IMG/VR virus record: IMGVR_UViG_2740892426_000004
Coordinates: 1-40,253 of that record
Source of the DNA: a virus
Taxonomy: Duplodnaviria > Heunggongvirae > Uroviricota > Caudoviricetes
Direction: 5' to 3' (one strand)
Length of the DNA stretch: 40,253 nucleotides
Part shown: piece by piece, positions 1,249 to 40,253 of the stretch
How positions within the stretch are numbered: position 1 is the stretch's first letter
Layout: each line of letters opens with the position of its first letter
Made by a program: the position numbers and the translations under genes
The notes under the pieces: generated by a model
The model's database searches: none
Seen by the model: the letters and a program-made list of their open reading frames with translations, nothing else
What the model was told of the DNA's origin: nothing

Positions 1249-1255
1249 ACGTAAA

Positions 1256-1301
1256 CTTTTTCCGGTTGTTGTCGATAGCTCTATATCCCTCAACCGGAAA
1301 A
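1256..1301 (+). other. inverted repeat downstream of cscB (TTTCCGGTTG ... CAACCGGAAA), possible transcription stop or REP-like element
   Basis: 10-bp perfect inverted repeat with 23-nt loop immediately after cscB stop. Confidence 0.3.
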
Positions 1302-1686
1302 TAATAATACCAAAATGCTTAGCCCTGCTAATAATCGCCTAATCCAAACGCCTCATTCATGTTCTGGTACAGTCGCTCAAATGTACTCCGGATACACGGC
1401 TCGCTGATTTCCAGGGCATTGTCGTAATTCAGCGACCTGTCCCGTGTATCACGGGCCTGCGAATTCATCAAGGAAAGCATTGTGGAGTGAAGTATCAAGT
1501 CACGCCATATTTCGCGATCAGGATTGTGTGTGATGGTTACATCGCCCAGCCCAGGGCTGTTTAGTCATCAGCGTTTTCTGACCGTGTTGAGATTTCAACC
1601 TGTTGCAGGAAAAATGAGTAGATAGGGCAAATGTGCTGCCAAACTTATCTTTTACGGGGTGAAGGTAGATATCGTTTGAAGGGTAT

Positions 1687-1702
1687 CTGGTGTCCCCTGC
1701 AG
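1687..1702 (-). other. putative attR core: displaced tRNA 3' end (minus strand CTGCAGGGGACACCA-G)
   Basis: Minus-strand sequence is a tRNA T-stem 3' half plus acceptor 3' strand ending ACCA, 73 bp beyond the torI stop; matches my recollection of the argW 3' end. Confidence 0.5.
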
Positions 1703-1775
1703 ACATCTACTTGAGGCAGCAGGGGATTGATTGGAATGGTATTTTTTAGATGTGAAAAATATTTTACCCGCTATT

Positions 1776-1976
1776 TTACCCATCGGCGCGGCTTAAGAGC
1801 TTATTTTTGAACTCACAATGGTCACGATATAACCACCTTGCTCGCCCGTGGATAACTTTGGCTTTTGGCAGGTCGCCGGACTTAATCCGGTCATAGATGA
1901 AGGTTTTACCGAAGCCAGTATCGGCCATGATGAATTTCAAATCAACCAGTGAATCAGGCTGTAGTTCGTGTTGCAT
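1776..1976 (-). CDS. torI: AlpA-family excisionase / recombination directionality factor TorI
   Basis: 66-aa ORF MQHELQPDSLVDLKFIMADTGFGKTFIYDRIKSGDLPKAK...; recalled identity to KplE1 TorI; GGAG RBS 9 nt upstream. Confidence 0.85.
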   Translation of the reverse strand: MQHELQPDSLVDLKFIMADTGFGKTFIYDRIKSGDLPKAKVIHGRARWLYRDHCEFKNKLLSRADG

Positions 1977-1985
1977 GAGTGCTAT

Positions 1986-2002
1986 CTCCGAATAGGGAAT
2001 CG
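1986..2002 (-). other. tRNA T-arm-like segment (minus strand TTTGCAGGTTCGATTCC) immediately upstream of torI
   Basis: Contains canonical T-loop GGTTCGATTCC; together with 1687-1702 would reconstitute a complete tRNA T-arm and acceptor 3' end. Confidence 0.45.
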
Positions 2003-2011
2003 AACCTGCAA

Positions 2012-2032
2012 ATCAGGCAATAAAAAAACCGC
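2012..2032 (-). terminator. rho-independent terminator upstream of torI
   Basis: Minus strand CCGCA-TCAA-TGCGG hairpin followed by TTTTTTT. Confidence 0.55.
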
Positions 2033-2099
2033 ATTGATGCGGCAATGGCAGGTCTGGATATCTTGAGAAATGAACAGGCCTCATCGAGTGTGAGGCGGG

Positions 2100-10246: not shown

Positions 10247-10525
10247 ATGCAACTTACAAGTACTCGCAAGAAAGCGAATGCAATCACAAGCAACATCCTA
10301 AATCGAATTGCTGTACGTGGTCAGCGAAAGGTTGCTGATGCATTAGGGATTAATGAATCGCAAATTTCGCGATGGAAAGACAGCTTTATCCCAAAGATGG
10401 CCATGCTTCTGGCTGTGCTGGAGTGGGGTGTTGAAGACGAGGAATTAGCAGAGCTGGCAAAGAAAGTAGCCATGGTGCTGACAAAAGAAAAGCCTCAAGA
10501 CTGCTGCAACAGTTTTGAGGCCTGA
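10247..10525 (+). CDS. c1: CII-like transcriptional activator (P22 C1-like)
   Basis: MQLTSTRKKANAITSNILNRIAVRGQRKVADALGINESQISRWK... HTH protein after cro/nutR; track ORF begins upstream at 10160. Confidence 0.8.
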   Translation: MQLTSTRKKANAITSNILNRIAVRGQRKVADALGINESQISRWKDSFIPKMAMLLAVLEWGVEDEELAELAKKVAMVLTKEKPQDCCNSFEA

Positions 10526-16970: not shown

Positions 16971-17045
16971 GGGTCAGTCGTATAAAGGTCATTACGGAAG
17001 GCTGTTAACCTTCTTATCGTGGTTCGAGTCCACGCTGTCCCGCCA
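16971..17045 (+). tRNA. tRNA-Asn(GUU)-like, with two stem mismatches
   Basis: 75-nt cloverleaf by manual folding: anticodon arm GAAGG-CTGTTAA-CCTTC, T-arm CGTGG-TTCGAGT-CCACG, 3' end CTGTCCC-G-CCA; one mismatch each in acceptor and D stems. Confidence 0.45.
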
Positions 17046-17050
17046 AACAT

Positions 17051-17126
17051 GCTGGTTTAGCTCCAATGGTAGAGCAGTCGCCTTGTAAGCGAATGGGTGG
17101 CGGTTCAAGTCCGTTAATCAGCACCA
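17051..17126 (+). tRNA. tRNA-Thr(UGU)
   Basis: 76-nt cloverleaf: acceptor GCTGGTT/AATCAGC, D-arm GCTC-CAATGGTA-GAGC, anticodon loop CTTGTAA, T-loop TTCAAGT, A73-CCA. Confidence 0.65.
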
Positions 17127-39095: not shown

Positions 39096-40253
39096 TCACT
39101 CCGCCTTTTCATCAAGCCAGTCCGCCCACCACTGCATCATTTCTCTGCGCTTATCGAGATACTGAGCGTGGTTGTAAATCCCGCGTACAGATCCGCCGTT
39201 GGCATGTGCCAGTTGCACTTCAATAGCGTCAGCAGGCCATTCGTGCTCGTTCATAATCGTGCTGAATTCATGCCTGAATCCGTGACCGCTTTCCAGACCT
39301 TCATAGCCGATTTGTTTGATCACAAGCAATACCGCGTTCTCGCAGATTGGCTTCTTCTTATCGTTGCGCCCGGCAAAAACAAACTCTGAGACTGGTTTGG
39401 TGATTGAGCTTAGCGTAGTGAGAAGTTCAACCACCTGGTCTGACATCGGGACCACATGAATTTTGCGTCCCTTCATCACACTGGCGTCGATGGTGATAAT
39501 CCTGTTTTCAAAATCGACGTTCTTCCATAGCATGGAACGAAGCTCTTTTGTTCTTAGGGCTGTGTAGCGTAAAACTTTGGTCGCAATGAGCGATACGATA
39601 CTTCCTGAAAATGTTGCAAGTGCTTTGTTGAATGCCGGGATCTGGTCTGCAGGAAGAAACGGGAAGTTCTTCTTGCGGTATCCCTTCATGGCGTCAGCAA
39701 GGTCAGGTGCCGGGTTATATTTAGCCCTACCAGTGACAATAGCGTAACGGAAAACCTCGCCGCATCTTCTGCGTGCTTTGTTGGCTCGCTCCATTGCGCC
39801 GCGATCTTCAAATCTGCGGATTACTTCCAGCAGTTGCATCGGCTCAATATCCTGAATCTCAAGACCGCCGATGATGGGTAAAATGTCGTCATCAAACATT
39901 TTGGCAAGTTCATTTGCATAGCCTACTGACCAGACTTGCTTCTTGTGCTCGTACCATTCCTTGTAAATGGCGCTAAAGGAATTGTTGTTAGACGAAGCCT
40001 TTTTCGCTTTTACCGGATCGATGCCAACCGAGATGTCTTTCCTCGCGGTCCATGCTTTATCCCTTGCCTCCTGCAAAGTCATAAGCGGATATTTTCCAAC
40101 GGTCAGGATTTTCTCCTTACCGTCAATCTTGTAGCGAAGCTGCCATACCTTTTTCCCTGATACAGGGACATAAAGGTACAGGCCATTACCATCGAGTAGG
40201 CGGTATGGTTTTTCTTTCGGCTTTGCTGCTTCAATCTGCTTAACGGTGAGCAT
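39096..40253 (-). CDS. intS: P4-type tyrosine integrase IntS (KplE1/CPS-53 family)
   Basis: 385-aa ORF MLTVKQIEAAKPKEKPYRLLDGNGLYLYVPVSGKKVWQLRYKIDGKEKILTVGKYPL... recalled near-identity to E. coli IntS; start codon at the last three bases of the window. Confidence 0.85.
   Translation of the reverse strand: MLTVKQIEAAKPKEKPYRLLDGNGLYLYVPVSGKKVWQLRYKIDGKEKILTVGKYPLMTLQEARDKAWTARKDISVGIDPVKAKKASSNNNSFSAIYKEWYEHKKQVWSVGYANELAKMFDDDILPIIGGLEIQDIEPMQLLEVIRRFEDRGAMERANKARRRCGEVFRYAIVTGRAKYNPAPDLADAMKGYRKKNFPFLPADQIPAFNKALATFSGSIVSLIATKVLRYTALRTKELRSMLWKNVDFENRIITIDASVMKGRKIHVVPMSDQVVELLTTLSSITKPVSEFVFAGRNDKKKPICENAVLLVIKQIGYEGLESGHGFRHEFSTIMNEHEWPADAIEVQLAHANGGSVRGIYNHAQYLDKRREMMQWWADWLDEKAE

Follow-up and report, generated by a model that had tools for sequence, protein, structure and literature searches.

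The attR end of the prophage

The window (the whole stretch of 40,253 bp of viral DNA that was analysed, IMG/VR record IMGVR_UViG_2740892426_000004) holds the attR end of a prophage of the KplE1/HK620/Sf6 type that is integrated in argW (Table 1). The genes for the recombination directionality factor (RDF) and the integrase lie at opposite ends of the prophage and flank attP in the phage, a layout shared with KplE1 and HK620. Because the window ends at the ATG of intS, attL and argW are outside it. The argW references were the empty argW-csc site of ECONIH2 and the attL of K-12, the latter taken in place of the window's own.

This type of module is known from KplE1 (CPS-53), HK620, Sf6, CUS-3 and Kapi1 through the work of Panis, Ansaldi and colleagues (PMC2951348, PMC3509656, PMC8787464). 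The window has the same 15–16-bp core and the same P arm, its TorI is 98% and its IntS 99% identical, and the module itself is without differences. The prophage is a full-length member of the family that sits beside csc and not beside dsdC.

Table 1. Features at the attR end of the prophage and at its far end (positions in the window; a minus sign marks the minus strand)
Feature	Position	Strand	Basis or remark
Bacterial flank, argW 3' end to cscB	1249..1687		100% identical to ECONIH2 empty site
DUF4942 fragment ORF in bacterial flank	1534-1328	-	
attR core identity block CTGCAGGGGACACCA (argW nt 61-75)	1688..1702	-	Exact single match; homology breakpoints
Putative B' half-site GACACCA	1694-1688	-	Inverted-repeat model
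Putative 7-bp overlap TGCAGGG	1701-1695	-	Inverted repeat GRTGTM-N7-GACACC, conserved across lineages
Putative phage C-type core half-site GATGTC	1703..1708	-	Reverse complement of B' = GGTGTC
P arm, 73 bp	1703..1775	-	Layout identical in K-12 attR
IHF-like AATCAATCCCCTG	within P arm 1703..1775	-	
Left arm of 8-bp inverted repeat (I8)	1726-1719	-	Repeat search
Two GGGTAAAATA arm-type repeats (direct repeat D2; also written TATTTTACCC)	1781-1760	-	Overlap torI stop codon
torI, 66-aa excisionase / RDF	1776..1976	-	ORF; 98% identical to annotated TorI/HkaC
Shine-Dalgarno GGAG of torI	1986..1989	-	Within conserved GGAGATA
T-loop box TTGCAGGTTCGATTCC	1996..2011	-	Core GTTCGATTCC = 2005-1996, conserved C at 1995
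TTGCCTGATTTGC, HK620-annotated cII-binding site	2008..2020	-	TTGC-N5-TTGC
Intrinsic-terminator-like hairpin GCCGCATCAATGCGG, T run after	2021..2043	-	Left edge of conserved recombination module
intS integrase, far prophage end	39096..40253	-	99% identical to CUS-3 and Sf6 integrases

The breakpoint of homology with empty argW sites lies exactly at 1702, and that with the K-12 KplE1 attR at 1688. The identity block between these two breakpoints is an ordinary attR core duplication, as the initial annotation had expected, and its ends coincide with both of them. Within the core, the crossover would take place in the overlap TGCAGGG, with inverted half-sites on either side. A table of cores from different lineages supports this model: g341c-clade phages and EhrS_49 have a perfect 6+6 inverted repeat (GGTGTC-TGCAGGG-GACACC), and the core of an Edwardsiella prophage reads GGCGTA-TGCAGGG-AACGCC. 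The gene torI adjoins attR and reads towards the core, an arrangement that belongs to the definition of the module, and in 13 lineages (the window and 12 others) the RDF stop codon always lies 74 nt from the overlap. IntS arm-type sites contain TAAA (PMC2951348), and the P arm of the window has the TAAA-containing GGGTAAAA repeats of the KplE1/HK620/Sf6 module. On the other side of torI, upstream contexts that are otherwise unlike converge at the T run of the terminator-like hairpin, and BLAST matches to phages begin at query position 68 or 79.

Two pieces of argW on either side of torI

Read directly from the minus strand, positions 2011-1996 give TTGCAGGTTCGATTCC, which is argW nt 46-61. We call this proximal piece the T-loop box; with one more leading T it runs from 2012 to 1996. 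The distal piece, CTGCAGGGGACACCA, corresponds to argW nt 61-75 and is followed by G1687. C61 is common to both pieces, and jointly they make up exactly argW nt 46-75. Between them lie 293 bp, made up of a 19-nt leader, the 201 nt of torI and the 73 nt of the P arm, so the box is found 19 nt 5' of the torI start codon, immediately before its Shine-Dalgarno sequence. Several of these values had been given before. The initial annotation was right that both pieces match argW, which they do exactly in the ECONIH2 and K-12 attL references, and it placed the distal piece at 1702-1687, which is where it is found. The string that it gave for the proximal piece is real as well, but the coordinates 2002-1986 were 10 nt off (the true position still falls inside 1687-2036), and of its two distances the 73 bp are correct while the 284 bp between the pieces are not.

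A chance match to the tRNA can be rejected: even with 2 mismatches allowed, the 16-mer of the box has an expected count of 0.03 in the window; for any exact 16-mer of a 75-nt tRNA, hand arithmetic gives about 1e-3 occurrences per 2 x 40 kb; and the box lies less than 300 bp from the argW att core. The two pieces are fragments and not a tRNA gene, because ARAGORN over the window found no tRNA at either of them (only tRNA-Asn and tRNA-Thr at 16971-17126), and Rfam on 1500-2200 returned nothing tRNA-like even at E<=10.

Conservation of the box

The T-loop box is part of the phage recombination module and not a product of the history of this strain. The K-12 KplE1 attR has the identical sequence, and so do the genome records of the phages HK620 and Sf6 and a close E. 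coli relative. All 80 of the IMG/VR viral contigs retrieved with TorI have it, either exactly or with a single substitution, and they place it behind several unlike upstream sequences. Even among near-identical E. coli prophages the box has variants that differ by one base.

Further afield, the core of the box, GTTCGATTCC(C), is found 16-25 nt before the RDF start codon in many IntS/TorI modules that target argW. Such modules, with unrelated flanks, occur in Escherichia, Salmonella, Citrobacter, Pantoea, Serratia, Edwardsiella and Erwinia. A scan of one genome per species gave the box in 11 of the 22 loci for which upstream sequence was available, in Escherichia, Citrobacter, Pantoea, Serratia and Edwardsiella, again with unrelated left flanks. 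A word-indexed protein search added nothing, as it yielded only RDFs that were at least 59% identical. More distant RDFs have it too: in a second clade, whose g341c-like RDFs share about 47% identity with TorI, the box is present in 36 of 47 distinct upstream regions, Erwinia phage phiEt88 carries it in front of an RDF 39% identical to TorI, and Erwinia phage Midgardsormr38 has two copies in tandem. When IMG/VR was searched with the pattern GTTCGATTCCC-N3-8-GGAGAT, a TorI-family ORF followed directly in 110 of the 120 matches, and the remaining 10 stood in a T-arm-like context (for example GGGTTCGATTCCC) and are taken to be tRNA genes, judging by that context. Relatives of IntS with less than 40% identity (Yersinia YeP6, Pseudomonas VW-6S, Stenotrophomonas S1, Klebsiella ST101phi6.3 and F116-like phages), considered as a way to extend the comparison to other tRNA targets, lack the RDF-attP-int layout.

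The part that is deeply conserved is the right-hand 10-11 nt, GTTCGATTCC(C), in at least 7 genera of Enterobacterales; beyond about -6 to +1 the information content is at background level. Around this constant piece all else varies: the DNA on either side, the RDF (as low as 39% identical), the motif that the RDF binds and the arm-site motif of the integrase. The target is constant as well, as the T-loop of Proteus argW likewise reads GGTTCGATTCC. About half of the species-level lineages have lost the box or had it deleted, so that it is dispensable; Dryocola and some g341c-clade phages lack it (TTGCCTGG followed by AGATAA), as do Chronis and EhrS_49. In our view the box is very probably a conserved and functional element borne by the phage, and probably derived from the tRNA.

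Alternative explanations

A first alternative is that the box is a promoter or host-factor element, either the spacer or core of a cII-activated pI promoter or a site for a host protein, with a likeness to the tRNA that was inherited and has no bearing on its function. In HK620 a "promoter, phage integration" is annotated with a cII site, TTGCCTGATTTGC, that overlaps the box, pI is also annotated in Sf6, and a cII homologue is encoded at 10265-10492 of the window. Transcripts from the annotated promoter would begin without the torI Shine-Dalgarno sequence and so would give Int without the RDF, following the logic of lambda, while a host factor would account for the constancy of the box across phage specificities. 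However, the TTGC repeats at 2020-2008 are spaced by N5 and not by the N6 of lambda, they read TTAC in K-12, and they are absent in the other genera that carry the box. The spacer of a cII-dependent promoter is also not expected to be conserved. A sigma-70 promoter was rejected, as nothing resembling one was found in 1600-2200. Taken together, we regard this explanation as unlikely.

The box could also be one half of a split tRNA end. In this case an ancestral attP would have carried contiguous argW nt 46-75, and a block containing torI would have been inserted at nt 61 later. The two pieces are indeed contiguous in tRNA coordinates, with an overlap of 1 nt, and the attP of tRNA-integrating elements often has long 3' tRNA segments. 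Phage epsilon34, for example, has 43 bp of argU (PMC2629481). Against this, the supposed insert would hold the P arm, with its arm-type and IHF-like sites, and the C half-site, all of which are needed beside the core, and the spacing is an invariant 74 nt. Among phages with IntS-like integrases, no relative was found that has the contiguous form (TTGCAGGTTCGATTCCTGCAGGGGACACCA) and the RDF gene elsewhere. Furthermore, in most relatives TTCGAT is kept in the same register just left of the overlap, and the T-loop is thus present twice. Outside the E. coli lineage, the second copy is seen in most relatives as a degenerate T-loop, TTCGATGTA, beside the core. In Serratia, for instance, the core reads GTTCGATGTA followed by TGCAGGG where the tRNA has GTTCGATTCC followed by TGCAGGG, and in the E. 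coli lineage little of this copy is left in the core-adjacent sequence AGTAGATGTC. Since most relatives keep a degenerate T-loop beside the core, the box looks like an additional T-loop copy rather than half of a split, and we give the split a small probability. It had been proposed that attP carries tRNA homology interrupted by the excisionase gene; the homology is phage-borne, as that proposal held, but "interrupted" fits poorly with a P arm in the gap and two T-loops in most relatives. It is worth noting that the box resembles the 5' coding region of torI (GCCTGATT...GGTT) in the E. coli lineage only, with p about 0.004. We treated this as chance, because the resemblance is absent in 11 other lineages, and rejected a partial duplicate of torI.

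Another explanation is autoregulation of torI, with TorI bound to the box as an RDF site (GTTCG). The TorI sites in attL are GTTCG, GATCG and GTCCG (PMC2951348). GTTCG is present in the box, the longer GGTTCG is found both there and in site I4 (TGGTTCGC), and a place just 5' of torI suits an operator. A covariation test speaks to this. RDFs with a GKTFIY helix go together with 4-6 GTTCG-type sites in the P' arm, and those with an (A/S)KYFY helix with ATTACC, GTTACC or GTAACC there and no GTTCG; arm sites alternate between GGGTAAA and GGGCATA, and the box is the same in all classes. Of the five lineages with the (A/S)KYFY helix, four have the exact GTTCGATTCCC box and it is degenerate in the fifth (L188). 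The conservation also runs over 10-11 nt including ATTCC(C), past the 8 bp of an RDF site, and known RDF sites are degenerate where the box is not. Since the box stays the same when RDF-site or arm-site specificity changes, an operator for TorI is improbable.

A fourth possibility is an element that acts as RNA in the torI leader, either a mimic of the T-arm or a hairpin that hides the Shine-Dalgarno sequence (UUCC:GGAG). The UUCC of the box is able to pair with GGAG in 7-9 of 9 lineages, but the hairpin from RNAalifold has just 4 bp at -1 kcal/mol without compensatory changes, sequence inspection shows that the flanks could not form a T-stem in any lineage, and Rfam is empty. On these grounds a conserved RNA structure or T-arm mimic was rejected, and we hold an RNA-level role of any kind to be very improbable.

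The weakest explanation is that the box is a tRNA remnant of serial argW integrations in this strain, or of tandem prophages and a later deletion. It has on its side a DUF4942 fragment in the bacterial flank and the description of argW-dsdC/csc as a hypervariable island hot spot (as cited in PMC8787464), but it is barely credible for a box that occurs in seven genera and does not differ between K-12 and the phage records of HK620 and Sf6. The earlier suggestion that successive integrations at argW had used different crossover points fails for the same reason, as the box is identical in K-12 KplE1, HK620 and Sf6 and recurs in the 80 TorI contigs. A strain-specific scar was ruled out, since attP of free phage (HK620, Sf6) and the K-12 prophage both have the box. 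With the hybrid junction as query, argW fused to torI via the box was found in 0 of 5,426 complete E. coli genomes; a torI-only scar from recombination of the argW T-arm with the box was rejected on the same count.

A possible integrase half-site in front of torI

The homology of the box to the tRNA ends at TTCC, which in argW stands directly before TGCAGGG, the putative overlap. Because the homology stops where that overlap begins, the box can be read as the left (B) half-site of attB: on the TGCAGGG model it would match exactly what adjoins the overlap on the bacterial side of attB. Our preferred reading as a whole, to which we give chances a little above even, is that of a phage-borne, probably tRNA-derived box that would be retained by selection as a DNA site in the torI control region; its best candidate role is that of a core-type (B-like) regulatory site for IntS. 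Its most likely reader would be the core-binding and catalytic part of IntS, because this is the only component of the module that has a constant specificity wherever the box occurs. A host factor or RNA polymerase would likewise be constant across modules, and the absence of the box from about half of the species-level lineages and its one-base variants in near-identical E. coli prophages also speak against this reading.

Taken by itself, the proposal that the box is a site for IntS is less likely to be right than wrong. The C half-sites of g341c-clade phages (TTAGGTGTC) are unlike the box, and recognition of GTTCGATTCC by IntS is therefore suggested solely by the need of the enzyme to act on attB. 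B-type sites are usually weak binders by themselves. If IntS does read the box, its occupancy there would be tied to how the excisionase gene is expressed. In one possible form IntS would bridge the box and the arm-type sites just 3' of torI, so that torI is silent in lysogens; the N-terminal domain of IntS would possibly sit on those downstream sites, with the 200-bp gene looped out. The more specific version, in which the box is a decoy or regulatory copy of the argW left half-site, bound by the core and catalytic domains, and the amount of IntS gates RDF expression, is more doubtful, with perhaps somewhat less than one chance in four. The distances from box to core are 294 and 314 bp (28.0 and 29.9 helical turns), but these come from two independent classes only and the phasing is thus uninformative. 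Also against a role of the box, a 135-bp attR that starts at the torI end, and so is without it, supports excision in vitro (PMC3509656).

Relation to known systems

Elements that integrate in tRNA genes reportedly duplicate a 3' tRNA segment at their att sites, as Reiter in 1989 and Williams in 2002 are said to have described. The distal piece is exactly such a case, and argW stays intact after integration because the phage supplies nt 61-75. The box, by contrast, is a second, non-adjacent segment (nt 46-61) on the phage side, about 290 bp from the crossover, and it plays no part in restoring the tRNA.

The core would have the anatomy known from lambda, with its C, C', B and B' sites and heterobivalent integrase: 6-bp inverted half-sites, a 7-bp overlap, distant arm-type sites and an IHF-like site in between. 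Lambda is not known to have an isolated copy of its attB half-site elsewhere in the phage, whereas here a lone B-type half-site would stand before the RDF gene. A second parallel concerns pI and cII, which in lambda give int without xis. HK620 and Sf6 annotate a predicted cII-dependent promoter at the position of the box; pI of lambda lies inside xis, and a start inside the torI leader would similarly exclude translation of the RDF. The likeness is limited, as the TTGC repeats are N5 apart and are not conserved along with the box.

Negative autoregulation of intS, which works through sites that overlap att, is a precedent in the same module for sites of recombination proteins that double as transcriptional operators (PMC2951348). 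There, IntS arm-type sites and TorI sites are located at PintS in attL, while the box lies at torI and is core-type-like. Published maps of attR begin at the torI end (the 135-bp attR of PMC3509656), and PtorI has been termed "non-characterized" (PMC2951348). A search of the searchable literature found no mention of a tRNA-identical box 5' of torI.

What the box may mean for directionality control

The box may be a previously undescribed control site of torI, the gene whose silence in lysogens and activation at excision the regulatory model for KplE1 and HK620 leaves to be explained. It is a concrete candidate that would be cheap to test, because it sits at the torI Shine-Dalgarno sequence, is identical to the target tRNA, and survives the turnover of RDFs, binding sites and arm sites. 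If it is read by the integrase, a core-type (attB-like) half-site could be reused as an operator, and this would be relevant both for the control of directionality and for the engineering of IntS-type integration tools. If the half-site gates the RDF, this would be a newly recognised layer of directionality control in which half of attB serves as an operator. Even if the box has no function, it would still mark this module and the position of strand exchange.

Layout of the attR end

Read on the minus strand, the attR end carries two tRNA-like strings on either side of torI, the gene for the excisionase or recombination directionality factor (RDF), just as the initial annotation described. The proximal string, called the box below, had been placed 10 nt from its true position, and the gap between the two is 293 bp (19 + 201 + 73) rather than 284. 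ARAGORN found no tRNA in the torI/attR region. As the window stops exactly at the ATG of the integrase gene intS, attL and argW lie outside it.

Features of the attR end, in window coordinates and in the order read on the minus strand
Feature	Position	Strand
Terminator-like hairpin and T run	2043-2021	minus
ATTGCCTGAT	between T run and box	minus
Proximal piece (box), TTGCAGGTTCGATTCC	2011-1996	minus
CTATTC-GGAGATA-GCACTC	between box and torI	minus
torI, 66 aa	1976-1776	minus
73-bp spacer	between torI and core	minus
Distal piece, CTGCAGGGGACACCA	1702-1688	minus
Bacterial DNA leading into cscB (1248-1)	beyond distal piece	minus

Several other features were recorded. Directly upstream of the box lies an element of 88 nt that contains two hairpins and a terminator (2022-2096, minus). 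Its Rfam match to isrK is weak and sub-threshold (14 bits, where the gathering score is 50). HK022, HK97 and mEp235 share the element at 91-97% identity, and it is therefore common among lambdoids. A 43-aa ORF covering the P arm and core (1652-1783, minus), the equivalent of HK620 hkaB and Sf6 gene 17, is probably not a real gene, since integration cuts it. The prophage also holds a tRNA-Asn(GTT) and tRNA-Thr(TGT) pair at 16971-17126 (+), likewise reported for the Salmonella P22-like prophage Scho1 (PMC2629481); in Kapi1, two unnamed tRNAs are described as preceding the lysis module (PMC8787464).

Comparison with argW and empty sites

Partial BLAST matches of window positions 2110-1250 among 5,426 complete E. 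coli genomes fall into two classes: empty argW-csc sites, matching leftwards from 1702 (for example ECONIH2, 100%), and KplE1-type attR regions, including those of K-12 derivatives, where the match extends down to 1688. From the alignment and K-12 attL, argW reads ...GGGCTAATTGCAGGTTCGATTCCTGCAGGGGACACCA, so that both strings do match argW, the box corresponding to nt 46-61 and the distal piece to nt 61-75. The latter is the 16-nt core already described for this prophage family, CTGCAGGGGACACCAT (PMC2951348; Kapi1, PMC8787464). None of the 5,426 E. coli genomes carries the junction expected if the argW T-arm had recombined with the box.

Between cscB and the 3' end of argW, the bacterial flank contains a DUF4942-domain fragment ORF (1328-1534, minus), probably a remnant of an older argW island, because it is annotated in empty argW-csc sites too. 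Just upstream of argW, around the likely -10 box, TAGCGGGTATACT (about 520-535 in L002 and 409-421 in L323, two retrieved sequences) is identical at 11 of 13 positions to the phage arm-type site TAGCGGGTAAAAT (window 1769-1757). This may be chance, as arm sites look like -10 boxes, or attL may have an arm-like site on its bacterial side.

Conservation and loss of the box

ATTTGCAGGTTCGATTCCCTATTCGGAGATAGCACTCATG is unchanged in K-12 KplE1 attR, a close E. coli relative, HK620 and Sf6. The 80 IMG/VR loci retrieved with TorI (58 distinct upstream sequences) all have the box, with occasional single substitutions, and their several unrelated upstream gene contexts converge at the terminator T run, ~20 nt upstream of it. 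Phage BLAST gives a left boundary agreeing with this point, where the Sf6 record annotates a 'boundary sequence'. Since the box is part of the phage-borne module, kept in K-12, HK620, Sf6 and all these loci, the suggestion that it arose by serial integrations in this strain is excluded.

A scan of one genome per species gave 22 loci with sequence upstream, and in 11 of them (C)CAGGTTCGATTCC stands 16-25 nt before the RDF start codon. These 11, whose left flanks are unrelated, come from Escherichia, Citrobacter, Pantoea sp., P. stewartii, Serratia fonticola, Edwardsiella and two misassigned MAGs. In a second RDF clade, typified by Salmonella phage g341c and ~47% identical to TorI, 36 of the 47 distinct upstream regions contain the box, with left-hand variants (CAA, CAG, CCT, TCA) and invariant GTTCGATTCCC. 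The box takes the form TAGGTTCGATTCCC in Erwinia phage phiEt88 (RDF 39% identical to TorI); Erwinia phage Midgardsormr38 has two tandem copies 16 nt apart, CAGGTTCGATTCCCGT-CAGGTTCGATTCCCAC (L006 1789-1820), directly upstream of the RDF Shine-Dalgarno sequence. Scanning IMG/VR for GTTCGATTCCC-N3-8-GGAGAT gave 120 matches, 110 directly followed by a TorI-family ORF; the remaining 10 have the sequence context of tRNA T-arms, and we take them to be tRNA genes. The consensus of 18 flank-distinct representatives is TTCCAGGTTCGATTCCC against TTGCAGGTTCGATTCCT in the tRNA, with information content at background beyond about -6 and +1; this set was partly fetched by the box pattern itself, and only the protein-based counts are unbiased.

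Several lineages have lost the box or show a clean deletion of it. It is absent from Dryocola and some g341c-clade phages, which read TTGCCTGG joined to AGATAA, from Klebsiella phage Chronis, in which the gene upstream and the RDF gene overlap, and from Erwinia phage EhrS_49. It is worth adding that the RDF CDS annotated as g341c gene 19 (L009 1822-2085) starts 60 nt too far upstream and runs through the box; judged by alignment to its homologues, the likely start is an internal ATG at 1882.

Core anatomy and a putative half-site

The RDF stop codon stands at a constant distance from the core, 74 nt for the TorI clade and 91 nt for that of g341c. The junction consists of G(A/G)(T/C)GT(C/A), TGCAGGG and GACACC in succession. 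Its two hexamers repeat one another in inverted orientation, perfectly so in g341c-type phages and EhrS_49 (GGTGTC/GACACC), and in Edwardsiella (GGCGTA/AACGCC) C replaces T at the equal position in both arms. Tyrosine recombinases classically have this layout, and we therefore infer a 7-bp overlap of TGCAGGG, whose position on the left edge of the block shared by attP and attB is the one that an overlap must have. Immediately 5' of it argW reads ...CAGGTTCGATTCC, exactly the box, and the identity stops at the boundary, TTCC being followed by T in the tRNA against a conserved C in the box. Given that overlap, the box would be a copy of the left (B) half-site of attB, as it equals argW up to the boundary and no further.

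It had also been proposed that attP carries tRNA homology interrupted by torI. The homology is indeed phage-borne, but most relatives keep TTCGAT at the equivalent register adjoining the overlap (in Serratia, GTTCGATGTA followed by TGCAGGG), and in these lineages the T-loop appears to be present twice, not split, which argues against insertion of torI into a contiguous tRNA end. The E. coli lineage is degenerate there (AGTAGATGTC, 5/10 positions matching the tRNA).

A perfect 8-bp inverted repeat, TCCCCTGC ... GCAGGGGA (1719-1726 / 1693-1700, 18 nt between arms), has its left arm in the P arm and its right arm in the core in all lineages examined. The left arm tracks the tRNA (Edwardsiella CCCTGCA/TGCAGGGA, one G fewer). 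The repeat may be an additional integrase site or a torI 3' UTR hairpin.

What might read the box

In attP contexts with the integrase gene downstream, RDF recognition helix, P'-arm repeats, arm-type motif and box were compared. RDFs with G(F/M)GKTFIY go with 4-6 GTTCG-type repeats in the P' arm; those with GFT(A/S)KYFY, phiEt88 included, lack GTTCG and go with ATTACC/GTTACC/GTAACC repeats. The arm-site motif differs between the two integrase clades, being GGGTAAA in one and GGGCATA in the other. Every RDF/arm class that possesses a box has it as GTTCGATTCCC. RDF sites thus follow the RDF and arm sites the integrase N-domain, and the box follows neither; what is constant wherever it occurs is the core and target tRNA (Proteus argW also has GGTTCGATTCC). 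This leaves two candidate readers, the core-binding/catalytic domains of the integrase or a host component. The integrase domains seem preferable, because the conserved block is as long as a recombinase half-site and placed like one, and because recombination sites already double as operators in this module (PintS, PMC2951348). A TorI operator is an obvious idea, since the published TorI sites are GTTCG, GATCG and GTCCG (PMC2951348, in which IntS arm sites contain TAAA) and the box contains GTTCG, but it is unlikely, as the box does not follow the RDF. A 135-bp attR starting at the torI end suffices for excision in vitro, so the box is dispensable there (PMC3509656).

In the HK620 and Sf6 records this position is annotated as a predicted integration promoter that depends on cII, the cII site being TTGCCTGATTTGC, and the prophage in the window encodes a cII homologue (10265-10492, +; 55% identity over 76 aa to a lambda cII sequence). 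Against this, the repeats are spaced N5, not N6, K-12 has TTAC in them, and other box-keeping genera lack them. No sigma-70-type promoter was detectable in 1600-2200. An RNA-level role is unsupported, the sole candidate structure being a 4-bp UUCC:GGAG hairpin without covariation.

The left box region, GCCTGATTTGCAGGTT(C)GATT (2018-2003), resembles torI codons 6-12, GCCTGATTCACTGGTTGATT (1959-1944), in the E. coli lineage only (shuffle p ~0.004); absent in 11 other lineages, this is treated as chance.

Relation to known systems

The argW recombination module is well known, as are its core and layout, and PtorI has been termed non-characterised (PMC2951348). The papers searched on KplE1, HK620-related phages and Kapi1 make no mention of a tRNA-identical element upstream of torI. 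We rate the box as a probably undescribed conserved feature, a putative attB-type half-site standing alone, within a system of familiar kind.
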